Shown piece by piece: positions 13,165 through 45,429 of a stretch of 64,000 nucleotides of DNA. The number at the start of each line of letters is the position of its first letter. Position 1 is the stretch's first letter. The stretch comes from Oceanispirochaeta sp. (GTDB lineage Bacteria > Spirochaetota > Spirochaetia > DSM-2461). The translations under genes and the position numbers were made by a program. Under the pieces are notes generated by a model. The model did not search any database, was not told the DNA's origin, and saw nothing but the letters and a program-made list of their open reading frames with translations. The DNA is taken from the NCBI GenBank assembly GCA_963666275.2, contig CAXXOA010000003.1:224001-288000 (forward strand). The letters are read 5' to 3'.

Positions 13165-13294
13165 TATTCCCTTATTCCTTATTGTAAACAACAGGAGCTT
13201 TGTACTTCCAGGAATTCCACAGCTCTTCCTTCGCCAGAAGGTCCATCATAAAGTGGGCCGTGTTGATGCGGCTTGTTTTGCCCGAGTCGAATAT
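13165..13294 (-). repeat. Displaced duplicate of the 3' end of the NAD(P)-binding gene (copy of 14583-14712)
   Basis: 130 bp direct repeat, 2 mismatches by manual alignment, offset 1418. Confidence 0.95.
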
Positions 13295-13456
13295 ACATCT
13301 GAGCAGAAACGGAGGATATTTAAAGCAGTTCAGTAGTCTTATTATTTAAGCGGCTATCAATAATTCTTTTCAGTACAAAGTTATTGAAAAAATGGTTTCC
13401 TTGTTTACGTAACTGATGTATATTTTACGGATAAAAAATATATTCAGGGAAATACA

Positions 13457-14473
13457 ATGAAAAAACTGTTGCTTGCTCTTTTTTTCCTTACTTCTGCTTT
13501 TATCATTAGCTGCGACCTCAATTCAGATACTTCTGATGATGAGGATACTACACTACCTTCTGAGGAGGAAACTTCTTCCACCCCCTCGGAATCCGATCCT
13601 GCTTCCCGCAGCTGGAACCAAGTTACTGCCTCCGCAGCCTGGACAGCCCGGCATTCTTTTGGAGCCGTTACCTATGATAATAAAATGTGGATTATGGGGG
13701 GGGAAGATAGCAGTTTTAATGAACTGAATGATGTGTGGTCAAGTACGGATGGGATTACCTGGACAGAAGTTACCAGCTCGGCAGCCTGGAGTGCACGGCA
13801 GGATATGGCTGTTGTTTCCTATGATGGAAAGCTGTGGGTTATGGGTGGATACGATGGGAATGGCGATTCTCTCAATGATGTGTGGTACAGTACCGACGGA
13901 TCAACCTGGACCGAGGCGACCAGTTCTGCCGCATGGAGTGCCAGAGATTCCATGCGGGTCATAGTTTATGATAATAAAATGTGGCTTCTCGGGGGGTATG
14001 ATTATGATGAGTGGCCTCAGAATGATGTGTGGTACAGCACCGATGGCGTAAACTGGACAGAGGCTACTGATTCAGCTGCCTGGCCTAAGAGAGAAACCCT
14101 GGATGTTGTTGTTTTTGATAACAAAATGTGGATCATCGGTGGGACCAATGATGAAACCTTATACAATGATGTGTGGTCCAGTAGCGATGGTATCATTTGG
14201 ACAGAGGTGACCGGTTCTGCCGCCTGGTCCGCTCGGTATGGAAAAGGTGTCATTGTCTATGATAATAAAATCTGGGTGATGGGCGGTTCCTATTCGTTTT
14301 CCCAACTCAATGATGTATGGTTCAGTGCTGATGGATCTACCTGGATTCAGTCTATGGATTCCGTTCTCTGGAGTGGAAGAAATTCTATGGTAGTAACCTC
14401 TTTTAAGGATAAAATATGGCTTATGGGCGGTCGCTATCTGCTGGATCTTCTGAATGATGCGTATTCCTGGTAG
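13457..14473 (+). CDS. Kelch-like repeat (beta-propeller) lipoprotein
   Basis: Lipobox FIISC, acidic linker, six ~49-aa repeats W..VT.SAAW..R....V.YDNKMW.MGG...NDVW.S.DG. Confidence 0.88.
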   Translation: MKKLLLALFFLTSAFIISCDLNSDTSDDEDTTLPSEEETSSTPSESDPASRSWNQVTASAAWTARHSFGAVTYDNKMWIMGGEDSSFNELNDVWSSTDGITWTEVTSSAAWSARQDMAVVSYDGKLWVMGGYDGNGDSLNDVWYSTDGSTWTEATSSAAWSARDSMRVIVYDNKMWLLGGYDYDEWPQNDVWYSTDGVNWTEATDSAAWPKRETLDVVVFDNKMWIIGGTNDETLYNDVWSSSDGIIWTEVTGSAAWSARYGKGVIVYDNKIWVMGGSYSFSQLNDVWFSADGSTWIQSMDSVLWSGRNSMVVTSFKDKIWLMGGRYLLDLLNDAYSW

Positions 14474-14589
14474 ATCCGGGATTGTTATTAAATAGGGAAG
14501 GAGTCATCTGTATGTGCGGCTCCATGCAGAATATCAGGGACTGAAAATATACCTGTGTAAATCACAATCCCTTCAAGGGAATTATTCCC

Positions 14590-15312
14590 TTATTCCTTAT
14601 TGTAAACAACAGGAGCTTTGTACTTCCAGGTATTCCACAGCTCTTCCTTCGCCAGAAGGTCCATCATAAAGTGGGCCGTGTTGATGCGGCTTGTTTTTCC
14701 CGAGTCGAATATGGGGCTCCTCTGAGTTGAAGCAAAGAGGGTGTATTCTGTCACTTCCTCTTCGTCGGTCAGAGCATCGGGTCTTAGGGCCACCCATTCC
14801 GGTGAGTTCCCTGGCTGAATATTTTTTTCCAGAAACTGAAGGGCTTTTTCGTTGTCTCTCTGGGGGGGCAGTATGACTCTCAGTAGTGAGATAACAAGAT
14901 TTTCCCGGAAGGAAAACTTTTCCGAGCTGCCTCCTTTCAGACAGGCTACGGTGTTCATGAGAATCACCTTTGTCTTTGACGGATCCGGTATATTCTGGAC
15001 AATCTTCTTTATAGAGTCTGTGACCAGATAGTGGGGTTTGCCGAATACTCCTTTAAAGGAAAGGTTGTGGCCCAGGCAGGAGATGACAGCATCCGTATCG
15101 GAAAGGATCTCTTTCATTCTCTCATCGCGGATATCCATTATGCTTTCCACGATGACTTCAAGGTTTTCCTTCTGAGGGATCTCCCGGAATTTGTCCGTCC
15201 TTCTTGCCAGGGCTTTTACCTGAAAGTCATTCAGAAGCAGTTGCTTCACAACCTGAAATCCCGTTTTACCGGTAGAACCTACTACAAGAACTCTCATATT
15301 TCCTCCATCCAT
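14590..15312 (-). CDS. NAD(P)-binding oxidoreductase (atypical SDR)
   Basis: VLVVGSTGKTG Rossmann motif; DAVISCLG; WVALRP. Confidence 0.9.
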   Translation of the reverse strand: MDGGNMRVLVVGSTGKTGFQVVKQLLLNDFQVKALARRTDKFREIPQKENLEVIVESIMDIRDERMKEILSDTDAVISCLGHNLSFKGVFGKPHYLVTDSIKKIVQNIPDPSKTKVILMNTVACLKGGSSEKFSFRENLVISLLRVILPPQRDNEKALQFLEKNIQPGNSPEWVALRPDALTDEEEVTEYTLFASTQRSPIFDSGKTSRINTAHFMMDLLAKEELWNTWKYKAPVVYNKE

Positions 15313-15392
15313 CTTCTTCCGAATGATTGATCATTTATCTTTCAATAAGTATCAGGTATTTATTCTGCAAAAGACAGGAGGAAAGAACAGCT

Positions 15393-16274: not shown

Positions 16275-16313
16275 GTTTAGTCGGAGAATAATTGGGGAAC
16301 CCTTCCCGGGGGG

Positions 16314-27505: not shown

Positions 27506-27549
27506 AAAAAAATACCTTAAGGCCTGCACGGCTTTAAGGTATTTTTTTT
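27506..27549. terminator. Bidirectional intrinsic terminator
   Basis: AAAAAAATACCTTAAGGCC-TGCAC-GGCTTTAAGGTATTTTTTTT hairpin with A and T tracts between convergent units. Confidence 0.88.
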
Positions 27550-27565: not shown

Positions 27566-27698
27566 TCAATCATTTAACAGATTTTGCAAGACTGGTTTCA
27601 AGCTTTGAGGCTGAGTCTCCTTCACCGTAAAGGAATGGCATTGATTGAACCGGGCGTAGGCTGCCAGCTCAGACTTCAGAGCCCTGGCAAAGTCTTCC
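27566..27698 (-). repeat. Displaced duplicate of the 3' end of the ycaQ-like gene (copy of ~37886-38018)
   Basis: 71 bp exact match 27628-27698 = 37948-38018, then diverged similarity to the stop codon; offset 10320. Confidence 0.93.
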
Positions 27699-28130
27699 GC
27701 TGCCTGAGAGTAAAGGGTGTTACCAGTCAATTGCGCGGCCTCAGTGAGGAAATCCCTGTACATTCGCCGGAAAAGGGCTCCTCCGGTTCCCGCTGTTTCC
27801 CATCTGATCCGAAGCCAGGATAAGATCCGCCCCGGTGTCGGGCGCACTGACCAGCCAGTTTGAAATATCTGAAACGAGTTTGCTGATACCCCGTGGCCCA
27901 AGATTGGATATGGGCGCATTCAGATAGGCTTCTGTATTGTTCCGTATACTTTTGGAGACTGCTTCAGAAACTGCCTCCGGGGAGGGAGGGATTTTCCTGG
28001 GTAAATGAAAGGGCTCTGGAACTCATGGGCCCCCGGGCAAGCCGGGTTCTCTTCATTCAGCTTTCGGATAATGTGATCAGACCGTGTTTTTTCATCTTTT
28101 ATGTGGGAGGTGTAATGAAAGAACAGTAGG
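27699..28130 (-). pseudogene. Degraded BtrH/DUF4872-family gene remnant
   Basis: Frameshifted pieces ARGPMSSRALSFT / SIRNNTEAYLNAPISNLGPRGI / ETAGTGGALFRRMYRDFL recognisable as this family; upstream limit approximate. Confidence 0.65.
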
Positions 28131-28270
28131 TCCTGTGAGAGGTTGTATTCCGCTTTCTGTCCTTCATCAATGTCCTGCATACGGCGCAGTTCCACTTCAA
28201 GAAACTCTGTCCTTACACTGCTTCCGTGCATATTCCTCCCCCCCGCATTTTCTGCCATTTTAAGTGGGAA

Positions 28271-28327
28271 TACTCCCCGGAATACTACCCTTGGGGTATG
28301 TGCCGGAGACTGCGGCAGGGTTAGAAT
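28271..28327 (+). promoter_or_regulatory. Operator copy 1 (heptamer + 7-2-7 palindrome) with -10 TAGAAT
   Basis: TACTCCC-N5-TACTACC-CT-TGGGGTA-TGTG; TAGAAT at 28322. Confidence 0.75.
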
Positions 28328-28335
28328 CCCGAAGT

Positions 28336-28584: not shown

Positions 28585-28681
28585 TTTCTTATCATCGGTA
28601 CACTCCGGGAAATGTTCAAGACCCTGAATCTTTGTGCTATAATGTAAACCTTTCAGTAGCCTTATCCCGCAACTGAGGTAA

Positions 28682-31408: not shown

Positions 31409-31455
31409 TACAAGGGAGTTCCTCCACTCCTCTTGTATCCCCATTTACAGGCGAA

Positions 31456-31511
31456 TACCCCTTCCTTTACTACCTCTGTGGTATGTGATTCCGCCTTTGT
31501 AAGCCTAGACT
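31456..31511 (+). promoter_or_regulatory. Operator copy 2 with -10 TAGACT
   Basis: TACCCCT-N5-TACTACC-TC-TGTGGTA-TGTG; TAGACT at 31506. Confidence 0.75.
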
Positions 31512-31535
31512 CTTACCTCATAAAGAGGGGGAAAG

Positions 31536-32348
31536 ATGAAAAAAACAGACCTTAAGATAAGCTATTACGAGTACAACGCCTTTATCATCGAATCAGGAGG
31601 TAAGACTGTAGCGATTGATCCGGGAGCCACCTTTGCCTATTACTTCCAGTTTAAATCGCTTATTCCCAGAGACATCTGGCCTTCTGTGAGCCACATTATC
31701 ATAACCCACGGAGATCCTGATCATTACTGGTTTGCCGATAAAATCGCCTCGGCATCGGGAGCACCGGTCATTATGAACAGAATCATGATGAGGAATACTC
31801 CCGAAGGCGCCAGAGCATTGGGCCCCCGTTCGAAGGGGCTCAAATTCAACTGGATTGTGGAGAATCCTGAACTCTTCGACCTTGGAGAAACCCGTTATAT
31901 CGATGGCATAAGCTTTACCGCCGTGGAAACGGCCCATGGCCCTCTATCGTTAAAAATGGGCCCTTTTGAAAAAGTGGAATATCCCGGTCCGGAGGAACGG
32001 GTCGGTTGGGGAGCCATGGGTTTCAAAATGACATGGAATAACCGGACCCTGGTAAATCTAGGGGATTCCCTATTAAAAAAAGTAGCCTGGTCATCCATTA
32101 TTGAACCGGATGTGCTGATGCTGCCTATCGGTGGAAAAGAGGCCCTGAATACCATGGGTGTCGACGAGGCGATCGAAGCGGTCAGGTTGATAAAGCCCAA
32201 AGTGGTTATTCCCATGCACTATAACCTGCGGGCTCTGTTTACAGATACATACTGCCCGGCGGATGCCCAGGAATTCAGAAAAGGCATAGAAAAACCTGGT
32301 TCCCGATGTGTTGTGCTTTCTCCCGGTGATTCCTGGGAGGAAAGCTAG
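31536..32348 (+). CDS. MBL-fold metallo-hydrolase
   Basis: ITHGDPDH, LGDS, VIPMHY. Confidence 0.88.
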   Translation: MKKTDLKISYYEYNAFIIESGGKTVAIDPGATFAYYFQFKSLIPRDIWPSVSHIIITHGDPDHYWFADKIASASGAPVIMNRIMMRNTPEGARALGPRSKGLKFNWIVENPELFDLGETRYIDGISFTAVETAHGPLSLKMGPFEKVEYPGPEERVGWGAMGFKMTWNNRTLVNLGDSLLKKVAWSSIIEPDVLMLPIGGKEALNTMGVDEAIEAVRLIKPKVVIPMHYNLRALFTDTYCPADAQEFRKGIEKPGSRCVVLSPGDSWEES

Positions 32349-32397
32349 GATAGGAAAAACCGCAAACCACCCCGATCCCGGCAGCAGTCCTGCCGAT

Positions 32398-32454
32398 TAC
32401 TACCGGGATTACCACCCCGGTGGTATGCGGTTCATCCCCTCTGGGAGCTATGCT
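32398..32454 (+). promoter_or_regulatory. Operator copy 3 with -10 TATGCT
   Basis: TACTACC-N5-TACCACC-CC-GGTGGTA-TGCG; TATGCT at 32449. Confidence 0.75.
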
Positions 32455-32478
32455 TCCATCAGCATGAAGGAGGAATTC

Positions 32479-32664
32479 ATGAAAAAAATTAAAAAGAAGA
32501 AGCTGGAATACCTTCCTGTGGAACTGAGAAAAGACTGCGGGATGGAACCGCGATTTGAATATCACCATCCCGGTTCCATGGATCTTATCTTTTTTAATGG
32601 GTCAAGGATCGGGCTGGGATTCAGCAGTCATTCCAATAGGAAAGAGAAAAGGAGAGTTTCATGA
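32479..32664 (+). CDS. Short hypothetical ORF (possibly a gene remnant)
   Basis: AAGGAGG RBS before ATG 32479; ATGA overlap with next gene. Confidence 0.4.
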   Translation: MKKIKKKKLEYLPVELRKDCGMEPRFEYHHPGSMDLIFFNGSRIGLGFSSHSNRKEKRRVS

Positions 32665-33377
32665 AAAGTATGACCGGAGGAAACTGTACCATCGACAGTA
32701 ATTCCGAATGCACCAATTGCAGAATTGATGGAAGACTGGAATGTAAGTGGAATAAAAGGGCGTTGAATAACTTTCTGGTAACATCTATGCCGGTATCCCT
32801 GATTTGTCTGACCGCCGTGGCCACAGGAGCCTATGTTACTTCAAACTGGTGGTACCTGATCGGCTATTTCGTTTACTTCATCCTTATGTTTAATGTATTT
32901 GAGATCCGTTTTCTCTGCAGTCATTGCCCATACTATGCAAAATCGGGCAATAAACTGGAATGCCTGGCCAACCATGGCAGTCCGAAACTCTGGAAGTACA
33001 GACCGGGACCATTAAATGGTTTTGAGAAAGCATTGATGATAGTATTAATCTCCACCATTTTTTATATAGGTCCCATGGGCAGTACAGTTGCAGGTGTGGT
33101 TCATATGCTTATGTCTGGAGAAAGGATACTTTCTCCCATCATTATGGCCTTAGCCGCATTGGCACTAATGACAGCTTTTTCCAGTACCGGTTTTGTTATT
33201 TCCTTACGCCGTAATTTCTGCTCAAAATGTGTCAATTTTTCCTGCCCCCTCAACAAAGTCGATAAACCTGTGGTGGACCAGTATCTCTTAAAAAACGATG
33301 TGATGCGGGAAGCATGGATCAAAAGCGGATATCAATGGGAAGATCCCCATTTGAAATATAAAGAAGGAGCTGTCTGA
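32661..33377 (+). CDS. Cys-rich membrane protein
   Basis: About 4 TM segments; CTNC, CSHCPYY, CSKCVNFSCP clusters. Confidence 0.75.
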   Translation: MKSMTGGNCTIDSNSECTNCRIDGRLECKWNKRALNNFLVTSMPVSLICLTAVATGAYVTSNWWYLIGYFVYFILMFNVFEIRFLCSHCPYYAKSGNKLECLANHGSPKLWKYRPGPLNGFEKALMIVLISTIFYIGPMGSTVAGVVHMLMSGERILSPIIMALAALALMTAFSSTGFVISLRRNFCSKCVNFSCPLNKVDKPVVDQYLLKNDVMREAWIKSGYQWEDPHLKYKEGAV

Positions 33378-33378
33378 T

Positions 33379-34137
33379 ATGAAAATTCTAGCCATATGCG
33401 GCAGCCCGCGAAAAGGAAATACTTATAGGGCACTTCAGAATATCCAGGATCGCTTTATTGATATTGACATTGAAATTCTGATGCTGAAGGATCTGGATTT
33501 AAAACTCTGTCGTGGATGCTATTCCTGTGTGACCAGGGGGGAAGAGAATTGCCCTCTGAAAGATGACCGAACCTGGCTTATTGAGAAGATACACAATGCC
33601 GATGGTCTGATCGCAGCCTCTCCTGTCTATTCCCATATGATTACTGCTCTGATGAAAAACCTCTTCGACCGGTTGGGTTATGTCAGCCACCGGCCTCTGT
33701 TTTTTGATAAATTCGCCCTGTCCCTTGTAACCTACTCAGGATACGGAGCCATGCCGGCTCTGGAGTATTTGGACAGGGGATTGAGTGTTTTCGGTTTTAA
33801 TATGGTTCCTTCTCTGGCTCTGAAATACAGACCGGCCGGGAACACAGAATCCCTGGATCAGGAGAATACACGGAAATCCATTGATGCTTTTGAAGTCTTT
33901 CTGGATAAAGTCCGGAAGGGAGAGAGGGAGAAACCGGGATTGAACAAATTGATACCCTTCGGCATTTTTAAAGCCATCTCCCAAATAGCCCGGGAAACCA
34001 TGCCGGCCGATTACGAATACTACAGGAACAAAAGGGAGTATTACTATGAAGTGAAACTGCCTTTTTATACAAAATGGATCACCGAAAGGGTTGTAAAACA
34101 GGAACTGAGTAAAATACTCGGCACTGGGAATTCCTGA
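33379..34137 (+). CDS. Flavodoxin family / NADPH-dependent FMN reductase (iron-sulfur flavoprotein-like)
   Basis: GSPRKGNT, CRGCYSC...CP, ASPVY. Confidence 0.88.
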   Translation: MKILAICGSPRKGNTYRALQNIQDRFIDIDIEILMLKDLDLKLCRGCYSCVTRGEENCPLKDDRTWLIEKIHNADGLIAASPVYSHMITALMKNLFDRLGYVSHRPLFFDKFALSLVTYSGYGAMPALEYLDRGLSVFGFNMVPSLALKYRPAGNTESLDQENTRKSIDAFEVFLDKVRKGEREKPGLNKLIPFGIFKAISQIARETMPADYEYYRNKREYYYEVKLPFYTKWITERVVKQELSKILGTGNS

Positions 34138-34160
34138 AACTATATCCAGGGAGAATAGAA

Positions 34161-35099
34161 ATGAATTGTAATAAAAACAAAAAAAAGATAATCCGGAAGC
34201 TCTATATACCGCTTGTCATTATGATATCATTCTGGATGGTTGCGATTCTGCTCTGGCGGGCCACGGGAATGCCTTTTTTTCTTTTTAATTTCGGGTATAT
34301 CGGTTTTGCGGTTGCCCTGGGATTGGGACTTTACGCTCTCCTTCCCAAAAAGAAAAAATTCCTGGGTCGGTGTATTGCCCAATTAATGGTGGGAATCTAT
34401 CTGCTGGGTTTTCTGGGTATACTGGGAAGAGAGAACATGCAGCTGGAAGGGCTTTTCTTTCACCTTCTCTCGGGGTACTTCGCGGCATCTGTAATACACT
34501 ATCTGGTGGCAAAGGTCTTCGGCCCCCTGCTCTACGGCCGAGGATACTGCGGATGGGCCTGCTGGACGTCCATGATACTGGATTTTCTTCCATACAAAAG
34601 GAATAAGGCTGGCCGGGTGAGTCAAAAATGGGAACGGCTCAGGTACATCCATTTCGCCATAAGTCTGTCAGTGGTCCTGGGGGCCTGGTTTGTCATGGGT
34701 TACAGGCCTGATCCCACCGGAAAGACAACCCTGATCTGGCTGGTCATCGGGAATGCATTTTACTATGTCTCATCAATCATTCTGGCATTTGCCTTAAAAG
34801 ATAATCGCGCTTTCTGCAAATATCTCTGTCCTGTTGCGGTGGTTTTAAAAATCACTACCCGGTTTTCATTGATGAAGGTTGAAGGGAAAACCGGGGAATG
34901 CACCAGCTGCGGAGCCTGCTCCCGGGCCTGTCCTATGGATATCGATGTGATGGCCTATATTAACAATGGGGAACGTGTTCTCTCCACGGAATGCATCGGA
35001 TGCAGAACCTGTTCCAATGCGTGTCCGAAAGGGATTCTGGGAGATACCCTTAAGTTTGACATCGGCGGAAAAGAGCGGATTCGCAGAAGAATATCCTAA
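34161..35099 (+). CDS. Membrane 4Fe-4S protein (NapH/YccM-like)
   Basis: GRGYCGWAC, RAFCKYLCP, two CxxCxxCxxxCP. Confidence 0.88.
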   Translation: MNCNKNKKKIIRKLYIPLVIMISFWMVAILLWRATGMPFFLFNFGYIGFAVALGLGLYALLPKKKKFLGRCIAQLMVGIYLLGFLGILGRENMQLEGLFFHLLSGYFAASVIHYLVAKVFGPLLYGRGYCGWACWTSMILDFLPYKRNKAGRVSQKWERLRYIHFAISLSVVLGAWFVMGYRPDPTGKTTLIWLVIGNAFYYVSSIILAFALKDNRAFCKYLCPVAVVLKITTRFSLMKVEGKTGECTSCGACSRACPMDIDVMAYINNGERVLSTECIGCRTCSNACPKGILGDTLKFDIGGKERIRRRIS

Positions 35100-35127
35100 A
35101 AAACATAAAAACGAGGAGAATCATTGT

Positions 35128-35706
35128 ATGCTGAAAAAAATATTATCCCTTATCCAGGACAAAACCAGCTGGCTGGTAATTCTATCCCTGCTGGCGGTGA
35201 CTCTGGGTTTGATGTTTCTCATGAATGGAACCCGGCTGCCTTTCAGCCATCCCACCATCCTGGAGCACTCCGGTGGGATCCCTATTCTGGATATCCGTCT
35301 GGGGTTTTCTCCCGATGATGCTTATGAACTGTTTGATGCACTGGGGATGCAAGGACGCCGGGCTTATCGCCTCCTGCATCTTCTGCCGGATTTGTTTTTC
35401 CCCATGGGCTATTCCCTGGTGTTTGCCTTCCTCAGTGCCTGGTTTCTGGTGCGTCTTTTCCCCCTTAACCACTATCTGCAATGGCTCTGTCTGATTCCCC
35501 TGGTTGCCGGATTATCCGATTGGCTCGAAAACCTCAGCCTTGTGATTTGCAGTCTTTCCTATCCCGCCCGATTTGATTGGCTTGTCCGACTGGCTAATCT
35601 GATGAATAAAATCAAGTTCTTCCTGATGCCGATCGGTTCGGTATTCCTGATTCTCCTGATAATTCTCTGGTTCCTGCGGAGACGTCCGGTAAAGAATATC
35701 TGTTAA
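35128..35706 (+). CDS. Hypothetical membrane protein
   Basis: GAGGAG RBS before ATG 35128; ILDIR.G, GRRAY, DWLEN; about 4 TM. Confidence 0.72.
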   Translation: MLKKILSLIQDKTSWLVILSLLAVTLGLMFLMNGTRLPFSHPTILEHSGGIPILDIRLGFSPDDAYELFDALGMQGRRAYRLLHLLPDLFFPMGYSLVFAFLSAWFLVRLFPLNHYLQWLCLIPLVAGLSDWLENLSLVICSLSYPARFDWLVRLANLMNKIKFFLMPIGSVFLILLIILWFLRRRPVKNIC

Positions 35707-35724
35707 CAGGCCCCGATGGAAGAT

Positions 35725-35780
35725 TACTACCCCGAATACCCCCTCTGAGGTATGCGGGTTTTTTTTCCAGGGCTTATCCT
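35725..35780 (+). promoter_or_regulatory. Operator copy 4 with -10 TATCCT
   Basis: TACTACC-N5-TACCCCC-TC-TGAGGTA-TGCG; TATCCT at 35775. Confidence 0.75.
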
Positions 35781-35813
35781 GCCAGAGTAAAGTTTTTTTG
35801 CGAATGGAGGAAA

Positions 35814-36053
35814 ATGATGAGAACAATACAAAGGAAAGGAAATCTGATTCATAGGCTGTTTGCCATCCTTTTTCTGGTAAGCGCAGTACTGACTGTGCTG
35901 CCCAATGCTGCTGCCAGTAAGGAATGCCGTCTCGGATACAAGGCAGTTTGCAGTTTTACACCCTTCGGGACCCTGATTCTGATAGGGCTGTCCGCTCTTC
36001 ATGTGTTTCTCGCTGTAAAGCGCACAGGTTCAATGAAAAGGCGGGAGATATGA
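35814..36053 (+). CDS. Small membrane protein
   Basis: GGAGG RBS; two hydrophobic segments around ASKECRLGYKAVCSFTP. Confidence 0.65.
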   Translation: MMRTIQRKGNLIHRLFAILFLVSAVLTVLPNAAASKECRLGYKAVCSFTPFGTLILIGLSALHVFLAVKRTGSMKRREI

Positions 36054-36979
36054 CCACTCAGTACAGTTCCCGGGTTCTGGCAAAGGAGGAGAGTATGAGG
36101 AATTACGAAGGAAAAAAGGAATGCACCGGTTGCGGACTCTGCGGCAGGGTCTGCCCCTTTCATGTTATTGATATTCAAATAGGGAAACCTGCCGCATTAC
36201 ATCCCGACCGTCAGCACCTGTGTATCCGCTGCGGTCAATGCATGGCGGTTTGTCCTTCCCGGTTCATTCAGATAGAAGGATTATCCTATGATGAAAATTT
36301 CCCAGAGTATCAACCCCATGGAATAAAAGAGGAGAATTTTGCAAGTTTTCTTGCCTCCCGAAGATCATTAAGGGATTTTGAAGATCGGGAAGTGCCCGGG
36401 GAAGCTATCCGGACAATACTTAATTCCGTCGGATACGCCCCTTTTGGATGCCATCGGTAAAAGAGTTCCATAACCGTTGTGGATAGCCGGGAAACGATCG
36501 AGGCTGCTCTTCCTGCAATCTCCCAATTTTTGGGCCGTGTGGTAACATTAATTGAAAATCCGTTTATATCCTTCTTTTTCAAAAAAAACAGCTCTGCAGA
36601 AGAGTTCAATACGGTGAAGAATCACCTCTACCCCATCTCCAAACAGGATACCTTTGATCTGGAAAAGGGGGACCGTATTACCCGGGGGGCACCCGTAATG
36701 CTCCTGTTTCACTCAGAAAAAACAGCCGAAGCCCGGACGGCAAATGGGCTGATCAATGCCACCTACGCCATGCTTCAGGCCCATGCTCTGGGACTGGGTT
36801 CCACCTTGGTGGAGGTGGTCCCGGCGGCCATCAATCAGGTTAAGGATTTGAAAAAACTGTTTCAGATTCCCAAAACTCATGAGGTGACGATGGCTCTTGT
36901 ACTGGGATACCCGAAGTTCCCTTATAGAAGATCTTTATGCCGGCCGCTGCAGAATGTGAATTGGGTCGGTCATGATTGA
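36050..36979 (+). pseudogene. Nitroreductase with N-terminal 4Fe-4S domain, interrupted by in-frame TAA
   Basis: ORFs ending at 36460 and starting at 36479 are in the same frame; CTGCGLC..CP, SRRSLRDF, HALGLGS, LVLGYP. Confidence 0.8.
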
Positions 36980-37074
36980 TGAGAGATTTTTTTTTACCGC
37001 CGGGCTGTACTGCAAATCCCCGGGATATTTCTGCTATCCCGGGAGTGTTTCCTTGACCTGAATCTGCCATATTT

Positions 37075-37808
37075 TCAGCGGTATCGGGCGTCCTCGATGG
37101 TACAGCGGAAAAATTCCCCTTCTGTTTCAAACCGGTCTGTCCCGAAGAACCAGCCCGCCCTGAGTTTTGCGGGGATTGTGAATCTTTGGAACTGCTTTTC
37201 CTCCTCAAAGAGGGCGCCAAATGCATGGGATCTGAAGTCTCCGCCGTCTGGGTTGCCCCAGCGCTGCATCCTGAGGTGTCGGGGCTGTCCCTTTTCATCG
37301 ATCCTGAGGGTGAGGGAGGTCCTGCCCTCTCCAAGGGGGAGTGCCGCTTTTATGCGGGTGTCATCCTGGGCGGTCCACTCTACTTCAGGCCCGGCCAGGG
37401 CAGAAGGCAGCCAGATGAGTTCTGCCAGAAACCGGTCCAGGGCGGATCGGGTTATATCAGGTCCCGATGCTTTCATTACAGGGAAGAGTCCGAAAAGGCG
37501 CCAGTCCATACGGCCTTTGCCGTCAATCACCCGGTCCGAACCGCCCACAGGCAGGCCGTTGACCCGGGTCCGGGCACGCCACAGCATGCCCCGTTCCCTG
37601 TGGATAACCTGTTCTGCCCGGTAGGAGCCCCAGGTTTTCAGTTTTATCTCAGCCGAACCGCCTGGGACAAGGGGGTTCCCGGTTTTATGGCATGGGTAAG
37701 GTAGCGGGTTACCGGTTCGGGTAAATTGCTCAGTTTATCAGGCAGGAAGGGTTCCGCCGGGGAAGCCGGGGAGTACCAGAGTTTGTTGAGGGATAGCTTT
37801 TCAGACAT
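37075..37808 (-). pseudogene. DUF6544-like gene with frameshift near 37650
   Basis: N-part MSEK...LPEPVTRYL...AVRLR* continues in another frame as EIKLKTW...AEQVI...; ELIWLPSAL, GEFFR. Confidence 0.7.
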
Positions 37809-37882
37809 GGTTTTCCGCCTTTGTGCCGTTTTTAGTGTTTTATGGTCTGCCCCTTTTATAACCGTCTGTCAGGGGTATCCTG

Positions 37883-39067
37883 TCACTCTCTCTGTAATTG
37901 ATTTATTAAAAGACTTTTCATGCTTTGTGGCTGAGTCTCTTCCACAATAAAGGAATGGCATTGATTGAACCGGGCGTAGGCTGCCAGCTCAGACTTCAGA
38001 GCCCTGGCAAAGTCTTCCCTGTTTTTGTTAAACCTGTTTTCCATGACTAACTTGCTGATGTGGAAAATCCCCTGCTTCCTGTCGGCCCTGGCATCCAGCC
38101 GTGCGACAAACTGTCCCTGCCAGAGAACGGGGAGGGCATAGTAGCCATACTGTCGTTTATCCGCCGGAACGTAGCACTCTATGCGGTAATCAAAATCAAA
38201 CAGTTCCTGTAACCTTTTGCGCTGAATCACAAGGTTATCAAAGGGGGATAAGATTTTCACCCTTTTTCTTGCCAGCGGTTTTTCCAGTAAGGCGAGTTGC
38301 GCCTCCGAGGTATAGTAGCTGTGCTTTCCCACCTGGACCCGGAGCAGCTCCCCCTGTTCCTCCAGGGCCGCCAGTTCCTTTTTGATGGGAGAGAGGATGT
38401 TTTTCCGCTGATACGCCGCTTCACCGGCCTGAATCAGGCCGTGGGCCCTCAGGTTCTGCCGGATCAAATGTCCGGCCATTTCCTGTTCTGTGGGCATAGT
38501 CCTGTCTGTTTGCTCAGGCAGCACCCGTTCTGTCAGGTCATAGACTTTCTGGAATCCTGCCCGGTAGGGGCACATCAGTTCTCCTGCCATAAAGAGTTGT
38601 TCCAGAGACTGCTTGGCCGGTTTCCACTGCCACCAACCGCCTTCATGGCCCTGGGGTTTTTCAAAGTCTTTCGCCTGCAACGGCCCCTCATTTCTGATCC
38701 GGCTCAGGACTTCCTGTTCAACTTTCTGATCCCTCTCAAACCAGTGGCGGTGTTCCCTGATCCGGGCTTTTCCGGGCAATGAAAACCGGTAGTCTTCCAT
38801 GGGCAGGTAGGCCGCCGCATGGGACCAGTACTCAAATATCTGCTGCTTTTTCAGGAGTTTGTCTATGTATTCGGGCTTGTAGTTTCTGACCCGTGACCAG
38901 AGGGTGTGGTGATGGGCCCGGGAGACCACAGAAATGCTGTCGATCTGGACGTAGCCGAGATGCCGGATGGCCGCGAGAGTTCCGGTGAGCCCGGAAAATC
39001 TGCCGGTTGGAAGACCCTGGGATAACAGAGCGATTTTTCTGGCCTGGGGGTATGACAGTGTTTCCAT
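37883..39067 (-). CDS. ycaQ: YcaQ/AlkZ-family winged-helix DNA crosslink glycosylase
   Basis: YVQIDSISVV (QxD), FEYWSHAA, LSPFDNL, YRIECYVP..KRQYGYY. Confidence 0.9.
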   Translation of the reverse strand: METLSYPQARKIALLSQGLPTGRFSGLTGTLAAIRHLGYVQIDSISVVSRAHHHTLWSRVRNYKPEYIDKLLKKQQIFEYWSHAAAYLPMEDYRFSLPGKARIREHRHWFERDQKVEQEVLSRIRNEGPLQAKDFEKPQGHEGGWWQWKPAKQSLEQLFMAGELMCPYRAGFQKVYDLTERVLPEQTDRTMPTEQEMAGHLIRQNLRAHGLIQAGEAAYQRKNILSPIKKELAALEEQGELLRVQVGKHSYYTSEAQLALLEKPLARKRVKILSPFDNLVIQRKRLQELFDFDYRIECYVPADKRQYGYYALPVLWQGQFVARLDARADRKQGIFHISKLVMENRFNKNREDFARALKSELAAYARFNQCHSFIVEETQPQSMKSLLINQLQRE

Positions 39068-39136: not shown

Positions 39137-39435
39137 TCACAGTTGGTACCTGAGGACGACTATTCCGCAATCAAAAGATCTGGATTCCACCAGTGTCAGG
39201 TCGAGCCTGGCGTTCAGGTCTCCGAATATGGGCAGTCCCTTTCCGATGGCACTGGGGTTAATGAAAAGAAAGAACTCATCTATCAGGCCGTTTTTGATTA
39301 ATCCGGAGACAAAAGCGGCTCCGCCGTAGGCAATCATGTCTTTTCCGGATTGGGATTTGAGTCTCTGTATTTCTTCCACCAGATCCCCTTTTGCCAGGAT
39401 TGTATTTTCCCACTGCGATGTTTCAAGGGTTTTTG
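39137..39435 (-). repeat. Displaced duplicate of the 3' half of the DHFR-family gene (copy of 44889-45182)
   Basis: 294 bp repeat 39142-39435, about 10 mismatches by eye, offset 5747; no start codon region. Confidence 0.95.
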
Positions 39436-39540
39436 GGTTTTTAAGTTTGAAAGAGACGAATCGATCAGATTGATATTCTCATTTCAAGCAAATCTGACTG
39501 TTCAGAGAGGATCTGTCATTGTGCTTTTTCTGAGGATTCA

Positions 39541-39569
39541 TTGACAGGCTAAGTTGATCTCTTTAAAGT
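39541..39569 (+). promoter_or_regulatory. Sigma70-type promoter of iclR (probably leaderless mRNA)
   Basis: TTGACA-N17-TAAAGT; ATG 9 nt downstream; no SD. Confidence 0.65.
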
Positions 39570-39577
39570 TCCTATAT

Positions 39578-40342
39578 ATGGACTATGTAAACTCGATTCT
39601 GAAAGCTGTAAAAATTCTGGATTTATTAAAAGAAAAGGGACCATTGGGGTTTAATGAGCTTTTAAAGCTCTATGAACTGCCTAAAAGCACCCTTTCCAAA
39701 ATTCTTCACACATTGGAATCGGAGGAGATGGTCCGGAAAGATTCTGTGAGCAGCAAGTATTATCTGGGTAATAAACTGATAGAACTGGGAAGCGCTGCCA
39801 GATCTTCTCTGGAAATTCGGAATATCAGCCGTCCTATAATTACAAAACTGCATGATGATCTGGATTATACAGTCCATCTCGGTGTGATCGCTCATGGAGA
39901 AGTTCTTCCTATTGAAAGCATCGAATCGGGGCATTGGTACTGGCACCATTTCAAGTACCCCGTTGCGGTAGGAATTCCCGCCCCCATGTATGCCACAGGA
40001 GCCGGTAAAGCCATATTGGCTTTTTTAAGCTCCGATGAGATAGATGACATTTTATCCAGAGGACTGGAAAAATTTACTGATAAAACTCAAACGGATACAC
40101 AGTCTCTCAAAGAAGAGCTGGTGGAAATCCGTTCACAGGGATATGCGGTCAGCAATGCTGAACACGATGAAATGATCCGCAGTGTGGCGGCGCCAATCTT
40201 TAACAATGATGGAAAGGTTATCGCTTCGGTCAGTGTACTAGGGTTGGCAACAAGAATTGTTCCGGAAAAAATCCCTGAGATTGCGGAAAAAGTTATGGCT
40301 TCAACCAAAGAGATCTCCCACCTTTTAGGATACCAATCCTGA
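39578..40342 (+). CDS. IclR-family transcriptional regulator
   Basis: LPKSTLSKILHTL HTH; YATGAGKAILA; SVAAPIF. Confidence 0.93.
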   Translation: MDYVNSILKAVKILDLLKEKGPLGFNELLKLYELPKSTLSKILHTLESEEMVRKDSVSSKYYLGNKLIELGSAARSSLEIRNISRPIITKLHDDLDYTVHLGVIAHGEVLPIESIESGHWYWHHFKYPVAVGIPAPMYATGAGKAILAFLSSDEIDDILSRGLEKFTDKTQTDTQSLKEELVEIRSQGYAVSNAEHDEMIRSVAAPIFNNDGKVIASVSVLGLATRIVPEKIPEIAEKVMASTKEISHLLGYQS

Positions 40343-40411
40343 TTTTTTTCTAAGATCCAGGATACATTCTCTTATTCAATACAATCCGTTGGAAAAAATC
40401 TGAAAAAAAAG

Positions 40412-40455
40412 TTGACAATTTCCCATCCCATGTTACGATGTTTACATATAGAAAC
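40412..40455 (+). promoter_or_regulatory. Promoter with candidate IclR operator
   Basis: TTGACA-N16-TACGAT with extended TG; imperfect palindrome GTTTACATATAGAAAC over the start site. Confidence 0.55.
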
Positions 40456-40497
40456 AAAGTTCATATATATGTACTAATAGAACGTACGGAGAATGCA

Positions 40498-41556
40498 TTG
40501 TTAAAATTAGTTCAAAAAGAATATATTCCCAAACCTGCAGGAACGGATTTTGTTCATGCTTCCACTAATTTGAGGTTGCAAAACGGAACGGTACTTCTCT
40601 CCTGGTTCGGCGGTTCGAAAGAAGGGAATGATGACGTTTCCATCTACTATTCCCTAAAAAAGGATGCCGCCTGGAGTCTTCCAGTGAAACTGGATGACGG
40701 GATTAATGAACCTCATTGGAATCCTGTTCTCTTTCCACTGGATAATCAGAAAATCATGCTTTTCTACAAAGTAGGGAAGGAGATTACCAAATGGAGAACT
40801 TATTACTGCTTTTCTTTAGACGGTGGAACCACTTTCACAGCTCCTAAGGAACTGGTTCAGGGAGATAAGGGGGGCCGTGGTCCTGTCAGAAACAAACCTA
40901 TCCGGCTCTCCAATGGAGATATGGCTGCACCGGCTTCCATGGAAAACGGGATATGGCATGCTTTTGTGGATTTGTCATCGGATAATGGAAAGACCTGGAA
41001 ACCCAGCAATAATATTGTCATTGAAAATATAACCTATTCTCAGGAAGAGATTGTCATTTCCGAGTCCAAGAAAAAAATCCCTGTCAGTGAACAGTCTTTC
41101 TTCGGCCGGGGCGTGATTCAGCCTTCTCTGTGGGAATCGGATCCAGGTTCTGTACATATGCTGCTCCGTTCATCTGAAGGAGCCGTATACCGGAGTGATT
41201 CATTGGATTACGGTAAAACCTGGTCAAAAGCTTACGTTACGGATCTTCCCAACAACAACAGCGGTTTGGATCTGGTTAAGCTGAACAACGGTGTTCTGGT
41301 TCTCATCTACAATCCGGTGGGTACCAACTGGGGACCACGATCTCCCATCTCTCTGGCTTTATCCCAAAATAACGGGAAAACCTGGCAGAAACTGATGAAT
41401 CTGGACAGCGGGGAGGGAGAATTCTCTTATCCGGCTATCACTGCTTCGGAAGATAGAATTTTTATATCCTATTCCTACAAAAGAGAGAGCATTGCTTTCT
41501 GGGAACTGGAGATCCAACAGGAACAAGCAGATGGTACGCCGTCTGTTTTAAAATAG
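40498..41556 (+). CDS. BNR/Asp-box sialidase-like protein
   Basis: Asp-boxes SLDGGTTF, SSDNGKTW, SLDYGKTW, SQNNGKTW; FSYP; probable TTG start after GGAG. Confidence 0.88.
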   Translation: MLKLVQKEYIPKPAGTDFVHASTNLRLQNGTVLLSWFGGSKEGNDDVSIYYSLKKDAAWSLPVKLDDGINEPHWNPVLFPLDNQKIMLFYKVGKEITKWRTYYCFSLDGGTTFTAPKELVQGDKGGRGPVRNKPIRLSNGDMAAPASMENGIWHAFVDLSSDNGKTWKPSNNIVIENITYSQEEIVISESKKKIPVSEQSFFGRGVIQPSLWESDPGSVHMLLRSSEGAVYRSDSLDYGKTWSKAYVTDLPNNNSGLDLVKLNNGVLVLIYNPVGTNWGPRSPISLALSQNNGKTWQKLMNLDSGEGEFSYPAITASEDRIFISYSYKRESIAFWELEIQQEQADGTPSVLK

Positions 41557-41587
41557 ACTTTCATTAGAAAGAGAGGAGTATTTTATA

Positions 41588-42550
41588 ATGAAAAAAAGCA
41601 CTTTTTTCGTAATGGCAGCACTGACTGTCTTTTCATTCACAGCTCTGTTTGCAAACGGACAGACTGACAAGCCTTATCCTACAGCCGGTGACGTTAAGGT
41701 AATTATCCCCAAAGGGGCCGGTGGTGGAACAGATACTTCTGCCAGAGGAATGCTTCAGTTCCTTGGAAAGAAAATCGAAGGCGTTAGTTTTGTTCCGGTT
41801 AACAAACCCGACGGAGGCGGAGTAACGGGTATGGTTGAAACCGCTCATGCTAAACCCGATGGTTATACACTTGGCATGGTAACAGTTGAACTGGCCATGT
41901 TTCCCCATCAGGGAAAATCTCCTGTGACTTTTGCCGATTATGCTCCTATTGCCGCTCCCATTGCCGCTCCGGCTGCCTTGATTGTACCTGCAGATGCTCC
42001 TTACAGCACATTGGACGAATTCGCTGCCTACTGTGAAGCCAATCCCGGTAAAGTACAGGTTGGAAACTCCGGAATGGGTGCTATCTGGCATATAGCTGCG
42101 ATGAAGTTTGAGGAAGAATTCGGAGTTAAGGTTAAACATGTTCCCTATCCTAACGGAACCGCTGATATTGTAGCAGCTCTTCTGGGTGGACATATCGATG
42201 CTACCTTCGCAGATCCTTCAGGAATCAAAGGTCAGTATGAAGCCGGTCAGGTAAAAATTATTGCTTCCATGGCTGGACAGAGATCCAATATCTTTCCCGA
42301 TGTTCCTACTTTCAAAGAACTGGGACATGATCTGACGATTCGTGCCTGGGCTGCTCTGGTTGCACCCAAAGACACTCCTGCTGATGTTCTGAAAATCCTT
42401 CGTGATGCAGCAACTGAATGCTATAATGATCCTGCCTACATCGACTACTTCGTTAAACAGGGAATTGATCCTACCAATATTGTTGGTGATGAATGTTTTA
42501 AAATGATGGAACAGGATCATAAACTGTATGAAGTAATGCTGAAAAAGTAA
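41588..42550 (+). CDS. tctC: Tripartite tricarboxylate transporter substrate-binding protein
   Basis: AGGGTD, PDGYTLG, HVPY, PDVPTFKELG. Confidence 0.92.
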   Translation: MKKSTFFVMAALTVFSFTALFANGQTDKPYPTAGDVKVIIPKGAGGGTDTSARGMLQFLGKKIEGVSFVPVNKPDGGGVTGMVETAHAKPDGYTLGMVTVELAMFPHQGKSPVTFADYAPIAAPIAAPAALIVPADAPYSTLDEFAAYCEANPGKVQVGNSGMGAIWHIAAMKFEEEFGVKVKHVPYPNGTADIVAALLGGHIDATFADPSGIKGQYEAGQVKIIASMAGQRSNIFPDVPTFKELGHDLTIRAWAALVAPKDTPADVLKILRDAATECYNDPAYIDYFVKQGIDPTNIVGDECFKMMEQDHKLYEVMLKK

Positions 42551-42613
42551 TCGTATTAAAAGAATCTTTTTATTGCCGGCATGGGTGACCATGCTGGTCG
42601 TATTTTATAAGAG

Positions 42614-43087
42614 GTGTTTATGAAACCTATGAGTTTCTGGAATTCTATCGTTGCCGTGTTTTTTACGGCAATCGGTGTCGTGATGATAGCTTTATCCCGG
42701 CAGTTTCCCATCGATTTCGGAGCAGGAGATCCGGGGTCCGGTTTCTGGCCAGTCGCTTTGGGAACTATTATGATTGCTCTGTCTGTGCTGTTGGTTATAC
42801 AGAGTCTGCTGTCTCCTACTGTGAAAAGTAAAATGGTCAACCTGGCATCTGAACCGCATTTTAAGGTTTATATGGTTATGGGGCTTTCTGTTTTATTCTG
42901 TGTTCTGGTTTATCTGGCGGGTTTCCTGGCGGCCGCTCTGATTTTTATTTATCTGGTAACCGGTGTTCTCGGCGATGCCGGTCATAAAGAGAGAATCCTG
43001 ACTGCTCTGATTATCGTGGCAGCTTTATATATCATATTTACTTTGGTTTTAAAGACGTCTCTGCCTTTGCCGATTTTTCTACGTTAG
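42614..43087 (+). CDS. tctB: Tripartite tricarboxylate transporter small permease
   Basis: PGSGFWP motif; 4-5 TM; between tctC and tctA. Confidence 0.88.
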   Translation: MFMKPMSFWNSIVAVFFTAIGVVMIALSRQFPIDFGAGDPGSGFWPVALGTIMIALSVLLVIQSLLSPTVKSKMVNLASEPHFKVYMVMGLSVLFCVLVYLAGFLAAALIFIYLVTGVLGDAGHKERILTALIIVAALYIIFTLVLKTSLPLPIFLR

Positions 43088-43105
43088 TTTCATAAGGGAT
43101 ATTGT

Positions 43106-44608
43106 ATGTTGAATTTAATCACTGCCATCGGTCATGTTTTTCAACCGTTAAATATAATTGTTCTCATATTCGGTACCGGAGTCGGGATCCTTATCGGGGC
43201 CCTGCCTGGTTTATCCGTAAATATGGGTATCGCTCTCCTTTTTCCTCTTACCTTTGCATTCAACGGTTTGGCGGGAATCCTTATGCTTATGGGGATTTAC
43301 TGCGGAGCCATATACGGGGGCTCTATTTCAGCCATCCTACTTAATACACCGGGAACGCCCGCTTCTGCCGCCACAACAATGGACGGCTATCCTCTTGCCA
43401 TAAAGCGGGGCGAACCGGGAAGAGCCCTGGGGCTTTCTACTTTGGGTTCTCTTTTCGGAGGAGTTTTCAGTGCCATAACCCTGATGCTGATTGCTCCTCA
43501 GCTGGCAAAAGTCGCCTTGAAGTTTTCCAAGCCGGAGTTTTTTGCCCTGGCTATTTTTGGAATCAGTATTATTACCAGTCTGTCATCCGGATCCGTTATT
43601 AAGGGAGTTCTGGGAGGCGTTCTGGGGCTGGCCATTTCCACAATAGGTATTGATGCCATGAGCGGCCAGATCCGTTTCACATTCGGAACGACTTATCTTC
43701 TGGGAGGAATCTCCTTTATTCCTATTCTCATCGGGCTTTTTGCCTTTTCCCAGGCCCTTTTGACATTGGAAGAATCTTTTGGAAAGGAGCAGACGAAACA
43801 GAAAGTGAAAATCACCCGATCTTTTCCAACCTGGCAGGATATTAAAAAGGTTCTGGTAACTCTCATCCGTTCTTCTTTCATTGGAACTTTTATCGGCTGT
43901 GTTCCAGGTACAGGTGGAGACATTTCCTCATTTATAGCGTATGACCAGGCCAAAAAATGGTCGAAGGACAAAGCGGAGTTCGGCAGCGGCGCTATAGAGG
44001 GAATCTGTGCACCCGAAGCCGGCAACAATGCCGTATCAGGCGGGGCTTTTATTCCCATGCTGACTTTAGGGATTCCCGGTGACGGAGCAACAGCCATTAT
44101 GCTGGGAGCTCTGATGGTGCAGGGGATTCAACCCGGGCCGCTTCTCTTTAAGGAACAGATCCCAACAGTATACAGTTTGTTTATCGGACTTTTAGTGGCG
44201 AACCTTGTAATGGGAATATTCGGATTTTCTCTTATCCGTCTGTTTGTCAAGGTGATCAATGTACCGAAGAAAATTCTGATTCCCTTGATTTTCAGTCTGA
44301 CCTTTGTGGGGGCTTATGCCTATAACAACTCTATGACAGATATCTATATCATGGTTGGTTTTGGGATTCTGGGATATTTTATGAATAAGTTCCAGTTTTC
44401 CATGTCGGCTATCATCATCGGAATCATTCTGGGAAAACTGGCGGAAGCCAACTTCCGGGGAGCCTTGATTATGAGTGACGGGCAGTTAAGTGTTTTTGTA
44501 ACAAATCCTATCTGTTTTGTTCTTCTGATTATCGCCTTTATCTCTCTTTTTACACCTCTGATAGCACCGCTTATTAATAAAAAGAATAAAGTCAAATCTG
44601 CTTCCTGA
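43106..44608 (+). CDS. tctA: Tripartite tricarboxylate transporter large permease
   Basis: YGGSISAILLNTPGT, EAGNNA, LTLGIPG. Confidence 0.95.
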   Translation: MLNLITAIGHVFQPLNIIVLIFGTGVGILIGALPGLSVNMGIALLFPLTFAFNGLAGILMLMGIYCGAIYGGSISAILLNTPGTPASAATTMDGYPLAIKRGEPGRALGLSTLGSLFGGVFSAITLMLIAPQLAKVALKFSKPEFFALAIFGISIITSLSSGSVIKGVLGGVLGLAISTIGIDAMSGQIRFTFGTTYLLGGISFIPILIGLFAFSQALLTLEESFGKEQTKQKVKITRSFPTWQDIKKVLVTLIRSSFIGTFIGCVPGTGGDISSFIAYDQAKKWSKDKAEFGSGAIEGICAPEAGNNAVSGGAFIPMLTLGIPGDGATAIMLGALMVQGIQPGPLLFKEQIPTVYSLFIGLLVANLVMGIFGFSLIRLFVKVINVPKKILIPLIFSLTFVGAYAYNNSMTDIYIMVGFGILGYFMNKFQFSMSAIIIGIILGKLAEANFRGALIMSDGQLSVFVTNPICFVLLIIAFISLFTPLIAPLINKKNKVKSAS

Positions 44609-44635
44609 TTGAAATTTTTTAGAAACACGCTTTTT

Positions 44636-44664
44636 CTCCGGGGGATTTCCTCCGGAGTTTTTTT
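44636..44664 (+). terminator. Intrinsic terminator after tctA
   Basis: CTCCGGGGG-ATTT-CCTCCGGAG followed by T7. Confidence 0.8.
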
Positions 44665-44877
44665 ATAAAATGTGGTGTTCTGTATAAAGTAACCTTTCCT
44701 GTTTGAATGGCGGTCATCTGTGCTTATAGAACACAGTCAATGTGTCCTACATTGTTTACCAATCGTATATTTTGTCTTTCCAATGATGTTGAATGGATTT
44801 TTATTGGATACGGGGGTCTGAGACTGTAGAATAATGAATGATCCTACCACCGGGCTGTCCTATTCTGGCGAAATCCC

Positions 44878-45429
44878 TTATCCCGCCGGTTGGTACCTGA
44901 GGACGGCTATTCCGCAATCAAAAGACCTGGATTCCACCAGTGTCAGGTCAAGCCTGGCGTTCAGGTCTCCGAATATGGGCAGTCCCTTTCCGATGGCACT
45001 GGGGTTAATGAAAAGAAAGAACTCATCTATCAGGCCGTTCCTGATTAATCCGGAGACAAACGCGGCTCCGCCGTAGGCAATCATGTCTTTTCCGGATTGG
45101 GATTTGAGTCCCTGTATTTCTTCCACCAGATCCCCTTTCGCCAGGGTGGTATTTTCCCACTGCGATGTTTCAAGGGTTTTTGTGAATACAACTTTCTTTG
45201 TGTTTATGAAGGTCTCAGCGCCTTCTTCTTCGGGGTGGGAGGTCCAATAGGGTATGAATCCTTCTGCTAGTTTTCTTCCAAGGACTATACAATCAACATT
45301 TTCAGTGATCTGCTCCACGTATTTTTTGAGTTCCTTGTCCCAGTCAAAGTTAACCCAATCCATTTCGCCTTCAGGTCCGGCAATATACCCGTTTACTGTC
45401 ATTTGAACCTGGAGTTTCAGTTTTCTCAT
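44878..45429 (-). CDS. Dihydrofolate reductase-family (RibD C-terminal) protein
   Basis: TVNGYIAGP, LGRK, YGGA, LIDEFFL.INP..IGKG. Confidence 0.9.
   Translation of the reverse strand: MRKLKLQVQMTVNGYIAGPEGEMDWVNFDWDKELKKYVEQITENVDCIVLGRKLAEGFIPYWTSHPEEEGAETFINTKKVVFTKTLETSQWENTTLAKGDLVEEIQGLKSQSGKDMIAYGGAAFVSGLIRNGLIDEFFLFINPSAIGKGLPIFGDLNARLDLTLVESRSFDCGIAVLRYQPAG

Follow-up and report, generated by a model that had tools for sequence, protein, structure and literature searches.

The 64,000-nucleotide stretch of the Oceanispirochaeta sp. genome analysed here, hereafter the window (C3:224001-288000 of a 5.27 Mb genome, G000, in three contigs, C1, C2 and C3), contains three accessory islands, each of which lies between an intact gene and a duplicated copy of the 3' end of that gene. 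We propose that these islands probably formed when DNA from a related strain recombined within a gene that it shared with the resident chromosome, and the far end of the incoming DNA was joined illegitimately back inside the same gene.

The repeats were located by BLAST comparison of the window with itself, which recovered the three gene-tail repeats of identical polarity described in a first-pass annotation of this DNA: 130 bp at 98.5% identity (pair 1), 111 bp at 92.8% (pair 2; 27588-27698 and 37910-38018) and 294 bp at 96.6% (pair 3; 39142-39435 and 44889-45182). In all three pairs, the right-hand copy belongs to an intact minus-strand gene, of which it forms the 3' end; the left-hand copy, hereafter the orphan, is a truncated tail. 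Pair 2 is identical over its first 71 bp, after which homology fades toward the stop codon, for a length of about 135 bp overall. All the repeats are direct and longer than 30 bp, and each of the three matches nothing in the genome but its partner. The upstream edge of the orphan is sharp in each pair, the downstream edge lies at most 27 nucleotides (nt) from the stop codon, and the last codons differ between the copies in pairs 2 and 3. A DUF4872 fragment, cut at model position 130 of 173, reads in frame into orphan 2. Decayed tandem paralogues were considered as the origin of the orphans and rejected: tblastn matches the tail only (amino acids (aa) 201-240, about 343-392 and 84-180, respectively), and the DNA upstream is another gene or a promoter region.

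The unique cargo measures about 1.29, 10.2 and 5.44 kb in islands 1, 2 and 3, all below 20 kb; the insert sizes reported earlier (1418, 10320 and 5747 bp) are actually repeat-to-repeat spacings. The cargo had been characterized as mostly plus-strand and convergent to the host gene, which holds for cargo 1, cargo 3 and the middle of cargo 2, but not for the ends of cargo 2, where frameshifted minus-strand genes are found on both sides (DUF6920/DUF6544, 37075-37810, and DUF4872, 27699-28100). The hairpin past orphan 2 was originally taken to complete a tidy DHFR-ycaQ-terminator unit. It is kept 3' of the sugar-binding gene in all three aligned congeners (G009, G005 and G006), where the adjoining ORFs (open reading frames) are not ycaQ, and is thus predicted to be the terminator of the sugar operon, possibly used from both sides; the spacer before ycaQ is 69 bp, not 70 bp. 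Coordinates are collected in Table 1.

Table 1. Coordinates of the gene-tail islands of the window and of the recQ islands of two congeners
Feature	Position	Strand	Description and basis
Host gene 1, NAD(P)H-binding Rossmann protein	14590..15312	-	240 aa, intact; PF13460 (NAD_binding_10)
Repeat 1, intact-gene copy	14583..14712	-	last 123 coding nt plus 7 nt; self-BLAST
Cargo 1	13295..14582	+	Kelch-repeat lipoprotein-like gene 13457-14473 (+), convergent to host gene
Orphan tail 1	13165..13294	-	130 bp, 2 mismatches; then CHASE3 gene; self-BLAST, read contigs
Host gene 2, YcaQ/AlkZ-like DNA glycosylase	37883..39067	-	394 aa, intact; PF06224
Repeat 2, intact-gene copy	37910..38018	-	homology fading across last 27 nt to stop; self-BLAST
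Cargo 2, overall	27699..37882		frameshifted DUF6920 gene (-), plus-strand block, frameshifted DUF4872 remnant (-) cut at junction
Cargo 2, plus-strand block		+	MalT-like regulator, metallo-hydrolase, FMN reductase, 4Fe-4S membrane protein, ferredoxin/nitroreductase, others
Orphan tail 2	27566..27698	-	identity over 71 bp, divergence after that; ends in its own stop (27566); in-frame fusion with DUF4872 positions 90-130 of 173
Hairpin, predicted terminator of sugar ABC operon	27506..27549		conserved in G009, G005, G006
Host gene 3, RibD_C/DHFR-like protein	44878..45429	-	183 aa, intact; PF01872
Repeat 3, intact-gene copy	44889..45182	-	stops 11 nt short of the end of the stop codon; self-BLAST
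Cargo 3	39436..44877	+	IclR regulator, BNR-repeat protein, TctC/TctB/TctA transporter; Pfam/NCBIfam
Orphan tail 3	39137..39435	-	294 bp, 10 mismatches, own TGA, 69 bp before ycaQ start; self-BLAST, read contigs
recQ island, G003	L075:4512-13708 (G003:C2)
recQ island, G008	L076:5783-16340 (G008:C2)

No recombinase was detected between 7 and 45.6 kb of the window, either by Pfam and NCBIfam scans of the 54 window ORFs or by tblastn with 22 recombinase, transposase and reverse transcriptase (RT) proteins of the same genome. BLASTN of positions 7000-45600 against the genome yielded a single additional match, of 62 bp, and no insertion sequence (IS) or multi-copy DNA. Comparison of 11 orphan junctions with 500 random sets identified no 4-, 5- or 6-mer in common beyond the random level, so that the earlier statement that no integrase, transposase or shared junction motif is present stands for this interval and these junctions. 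Elsewhere, the genome contains 10 matches to PF00589 (tyrosine recombinase), none of them on C3, and a single IntI, on C1; PF00239 (Resolvase family) has no match in the genome.

The first-pass annotation had called for a genome-wide self-alignment. Our scan for unique partial gene copies returned 65 rows, 27 of them near (at most 60 kb from the full copy) and 38 far. Among the near rows, 3' tails lay downstream in direct orientation in 10 and upstream in 1, compared to 3' ends in 2 of the 38 far rows (Fisher p=0.0009). An IS1182-like tail inside an attC array (C1 1296986), a tandem paralogue array (C2 995307) and the rows of REP-type transposases, tandem-paralogue 5' ends and shadow ORFs were left out of the count of such tail duplications, or scars. 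One shadow-ORF row was reclassified as a true 3' case; it represents a 101-bp, 99% identical cobalamin (cob) gene tail around one PD-(D/E)XK nuclease gene (C2:2075615-2082396) and brings the genome total to 11. The host genes are unrelated and the repeat identities range from 80 to 99%, which points to recurrent events of different ages, in line with the recurrent capture route originally suggested. Scars cluster at C3 208-269 kb (4) and C1 194-234 kb (3), and the three in 32 kb of the window exceed the genome rate (Poisson 5e-5, post hoc). Because the C1 cluster is free of attC, the attC array is not required; the distribution of the scars is non-random and independent of the integron.

Scars are also found in congeners, where a scan of 1.6 Mb (400 kb from each of 4 congeners) identified one clear case versus 3.3 expected at the rate of the present genome (p=0.15). 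This scar, in G004, consists of a 544-bp, 99.8% identical tail repeat enclosing 18 kb in which no ORF resembles a recombinase by its best hits; the corresponding empty site is present in the genome analysed here, and the G004 orphan adjoins the same neighbour as the empty site.

Two further features bear on the joints. At 2 orphan junctions, a cargo gene is cut in the middle of a domain (DUF4872::ycaQ tail and Peripla_BP_4::FAD_binding_2 tail); a search for DUF4872 homologues, meant to reveal microhomology at the junction, found none. Between intact copies of an aminotransferase-domain gene and of DcuC/YfcC, at C1 228741-228997, a 5' piece of the former runs directly into a 3' piece of the latter, as expected if two alleles of one locus were joined in tandem, which is how we read this structure.

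Under the proposed scheme, the donor would be DNA of a related strain carrying the same gene followed by different genes. A crossover within the shared gene would bring in the last codons of the donor along with its downstream genes, and the far end would be joined illegitimately 110-300 bp before the resident stop codon, either directly or through an end-joined circle followed by one crossover, two routes that the sequence does not separate. The gene would remain intact with new genes behind it, whereas the resident tail and the old neighbour would be pushed downstream, the tail then decaying; events that duplicate a gene end keep the gene intact and might survive for that reason. Dependence on RecA, the route of uptake and the order of events are presumed; the genome encodes transformation machinery, with ComEC and DprA. 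In most scars, homology ends at the stop codon or at most 27 nt from it, often with other last codons or another stop codon, as expected at a natural homology border of two lineages, given that their gene neighbourhoods would differ at this point. Integrase-free, homology-anchored entry, as envisaged in the first-pass annotation, is supported by the lack of recombinases, IS and attC in 7000-45600, the motif-free junctions, the mid-domain cuts, the genome-wide recurrence and the empty-site neighbour retained in G004.

Several observations weigh against this scheme. The window pairs differ in 7 synonymous versus 8 non-synonymous codons, so that the synonymous excess is weak, and in 4 older scars examined with congener outgroups, non-synonymous changes fall mostly on the orphan (10/2, 11/1, 8/1 and 4/1), synonymous changes being about equal on both copies. 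This pattern suggests that most of the divergence is decay or neutral drift, not a functional C-terminal swap, and divergence by itself is no proof of two donors. The claim that the cargo arrived with a donor allele of the gene tail, replacing the C-terminus, accordingly survives only for the last few codons, which differ as those of separate alleles do; it fails to account for the non-synonymous changes in the older scars and for the repeats at recQ (see below), which are the recipient's own. For the three window islands, neither an empty site nor a donor was found, no relative being close enough. The YcaQ relatives in 41 genomes are at most 52% identical, the best long match in 17 metagenome loci reaches 51%, the ycaQ and NAD-binding protein clusters are singletons, and congeners share with the window, at the DNA level, the sugar operon or single genes only. 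Apart from generic ABC ATPase matches, none of the window genes adjoins ycaQ in 32 loci. The rdoA and prkA orphans do not adjoin the neighbour seen in congeners, an extra 3.5 kb and 13.7 kb, respectively, lying in between, and the cob genes past the orphan look inverted relative to G003, G008 and G009; these three tails thus border variable loci, with accessory DNA in both versions. The 11 islands include one, at C1 627-669 kb, in which a broken tyrosine integrase was found. Finally, classical homology-facilitated illegitimate recombination (HFIR), which is marked by RecA dependence and by 3-10 bp of microhomology at the joint, inserts DNA with deletion of recipient DNA past the anchor, whereas the islands described here come with duplications.

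Orphans elsewhere in the genome have decayed to 80% identity and acquired stop codons, which indicates that many scars probably persist. The repeats contain perfect runs of 66-89 bp, which would be long enough for excision by RecA according to the minimal homology requirement.

Among the alternatives, the islands might be remnants of site-specific elements that inserted in gene 3' ends and supplied a replacement tail, with the integrase subsequently deleted. Such elements could resemble e14/icdC or a cis-mobilizable element (CIME) served by an integrase in trans. The topology is that of icd/e14/icdC as far as it is laid out in the part of the report consulted (PMC13626634), namely, an intact gene with a new tail, an insert and a displaced C-terminal pseudogene, where excision of e14 leaves a chimeric gene. 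The 10 tyrosine recombinase matches and the broken one within a scar-bounded island are compatible with such an origin, and deletions could produce the mid-domain junctions. The e14 element, however, is a prophage with site-specific excision at one fixed site, whereas here 11 unrelated target genes are involved that share no core motif. No integrase remnant was found in the three window cargos, despite repeats up to 98.5% identical, nor in the ORFs of the G004 island, with its 99.8% identical repeat, and cargo 1 is a lone 1.3-kb gene. We consider this origin unlikely.

An intragenomic event also appears improbable. A break or a replication restart could have copied the recipient's own tail, with unrelated DNA patched in without any donor homology and all differences arising by later decay; this would be a true long target duplication. 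The concentration of non-synonymous changes on orphans, with synonymous changes split evenly, would fit such a course, as would the host-type recQ repeats of G003 and G008, and a role for double-strand breaks has been suggested in the accessible text of Furuta 2010 (PMC2853133). What it leaves unexplained is the outer edge at the stop codon with alternative last codons. Moreover, the recQ island carries a short donor-type recQ head, and a FAD-binding pair elsewhere in the genome differs in 22 synonymous versus only 6 non-synonymous codons.

An origin of the islands through the integron integrase (attC x secondary site) or through the group II introns in the neighbouring array is very unlikely. 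The array does lie close by: the window contains 4 attC sites at 45.6-55.5 kb, the first host gene beside them begins 170 bp past the last attC, and four scars are located between two attC clusters on C3, with IntI on C1. Nevertheless, an iterated profile that found 27 attC sites in the genome detected none in window positions 1-45600, so that the cargos lack the bounding attC of an integron gene cassette; together with the attC-free cluster at C1 194-234 kb, this argues against the link to the array that had been raised earlier. We know of no cassette insertion that duplicates 100-300 bp. As a separate observation, the window includes two group II intron RT copies (45640-47907 and 49615-51817) that are 99.7% identical over 1953 bp, each at an attC site, and G003 contains 9 matches to the 3' end region of this intron.

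Misassembly of co-occurring strain variants would be hardly credible as the source of the islands. Two sequencing runs (X1 and X2) come from a single sample, which is probably the one that was assembled; in the Logan contigs of these runs, each unique junction of all three pairs is reproduced with 0 differences, and the contigs end within the repeats. The collapsed repeat contigs have roughly double depth in pair 1 (21.8/14.4 vs 7-13/7-9) and pair 2 (8.6/21.4 vs 3-7/7-11), other orphans have decayed to 80% with stop codons, and congeners show the same structures. On the other side, the runs look metagenomic, and the depth of cargo 2 (4.3/6.7) is below that of its flanks (5.8-7.0/9.2-9.4), a difference too noisy to infer excision. 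The islands are not an assembly artefact, with the caveat that no X1 or X2 contig crosses a whole repeat pair, so that the linear order across the repeats rests on the assembly.

A further comparison comes from recQ in two congeners. An integrase-free 6.5-kb island, with a GGDEF-PEP enzyme, a response regulator, a kinase and a radical SAM protein as cargo, is common to G003 and G008, where it lies between a 5' partial and a full copy of recQ. The island together with the recQ promoter and first codons, which are island-borne, is 87-100% identical between the two genomes, as against 70% for the recQ genes and 67-77% for three other orthologue pairs. Each partial copy matches recQ of its own genome, from nt 61 to 939 with 2 mismatches in G003 and from nt 43 to 926 with 1 mismatch in G008; both duplications are about 880 bp long, with end points that differ by about 4 nt. 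The G003 joint is located at an imperfect microhomology 174 bp deeper in the cargo. Among 301 sampled members of the class, a sample without G008, only G003 has this cargo at recQ, other matches stopping before the recQ head.

These observations suggest that repeat-bounded islands may rebuild their repeats from each recipient. A single crossover of a foreign circle would leave a donor-type partial copy and, none being seen, does not explain the recQ case, which could be accounted for by inside-out pairing with gap filling, by a two-step route via a conspecific donor or by later gene conversion. A broader and more tentative idea, on the doubtful side in our own estimate, is that such an island spreads between species without a recombinase of its own: its ends would pair 'ends-in', that is, inside-out, with the single gene copy of the recipient, and the gap would be filled from the recipient, each host rebuilding the repeat. 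In that case, the window islands, in which the bodies of the repeats are near-identical and the last codons have diverged, would represent the 3' counterpart of a general, gene-anchored mode of mobility. Independently, a 3.3-kb radical SAM/kinase/response-regulator block has equal match boundaries at C2:637055-640353 and G003:C2:677623-680920, the latter being a second G003 copy, and may be a mobile unit in its own right.

Insertion with long target duplication reportedly goes back to Nobusato et al. 2000. As delineated in portions of two later reports (PMC2853133; PMC3457768), such insertions are shorter than 20 kb, lack mobility genes and are flanked by variable, slightly diverged repeats of more than 30 bp that are unique in the genome, some of which overlap gene 3' ends and some make gene fusions; most cases are from competent species. 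The window islands agree with this description in insert size, repeats, uniqueness and absence of mobility genes, and an empty site with one repeat copy elsewhere, also a mark of the class, was found for the G004 island. The published cargo, so far as these portions go, is restriction-modification, whereas here it consists of transport, redox and regulatory genes, no restriction-modification family having been found by Pfam and NCBIfam among the scanned cargo ORFs, which places the islands outside that subclass; a further difference is that the repeats here are gene tails throughout and follow one another in series. Judging from their organization, the islands fit a variant of the published long target duplication with metabolic instead of restriction-modification cargo.

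Other systems share parts of this organization, as far as the sections consulted describe them. When linear DNA with one homologous end enters E. coli by conjugation, duplications of 109-950 bp arise in 56 of 60 clones, which the authors attribute to circularisation and a single crossover (Amarir-Bouhram et al. 2011, PMC3240628). The two cases have in common a single homologous end, a single illegitimate joint and similar duplications; the E. coli case is a laboratory plasmid system, whereas the islands are known from sequence, with no intermediate seen. In the C-terminal displacement and orphan arrays of rhs, contact-dependent inhibition (CDI) and type VI secretion system (T6SS) loci, new 3' DNA likewise moves the old end downstream, by a proposed HFIR-like process (Kirchberger 2017, PMC5361080), but there the C-terminal domain itself is swapped, whereas here the protein is nearly unchanged and the cargo consists of downstream genes. 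In Streptococcus pneumoniae merodiploids, donor DNA pairs at two places on sister chromatids and duplicates recipient DNA (Johnston 2013, PMC3784515), unlike the present case in that the pairing involves IS repeats, 100-900 kb is duplicated and no foreign cargo is inserted. An incomplete search of the literature found neither integrase-free gene-tail scars treated as a genome-wide class nor any account of repeats rebuilt from the recipient.

Several additional structures were noted in the same genome. The island at C1:625164-670997 spans 37-42 kb, with a duplication that extends from the tail of a FAD-binding gene across the gene border into the head of recQ, a tail fused in frame to half of a sugar-binding gene, and IS copies and a broken integrase inside. 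Nested scars at C1:204000-234279 are tails of DeoR, GntR and YfcC. At C2:395477-415634, two full tRNA-Leu(CAG) genes with a terminator (127 bp, 96%) bracket 20 kb without a PF00589 match. The contig ends (C1:1-8812, C2:1-11670 and C3:372584-381805) carry direct repeats of 2.5-3.5 kb at 91-98% identity, those of C2 including tyrosine recombinases.

Taken alone, the window adds a further good example to a published but little-studied pattern. Of greatest interest is the recQ island shared by two species; it makes the mechanism testable, with recipient-derived repeats as the prediction. Many accessory islands lack an integrase; gene-tail scars mark the entry of such islands and date it by their decay. 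In this genome, with about 2 such sites per Mb, genes may be added, and not only replaced, by host recombination on its own.

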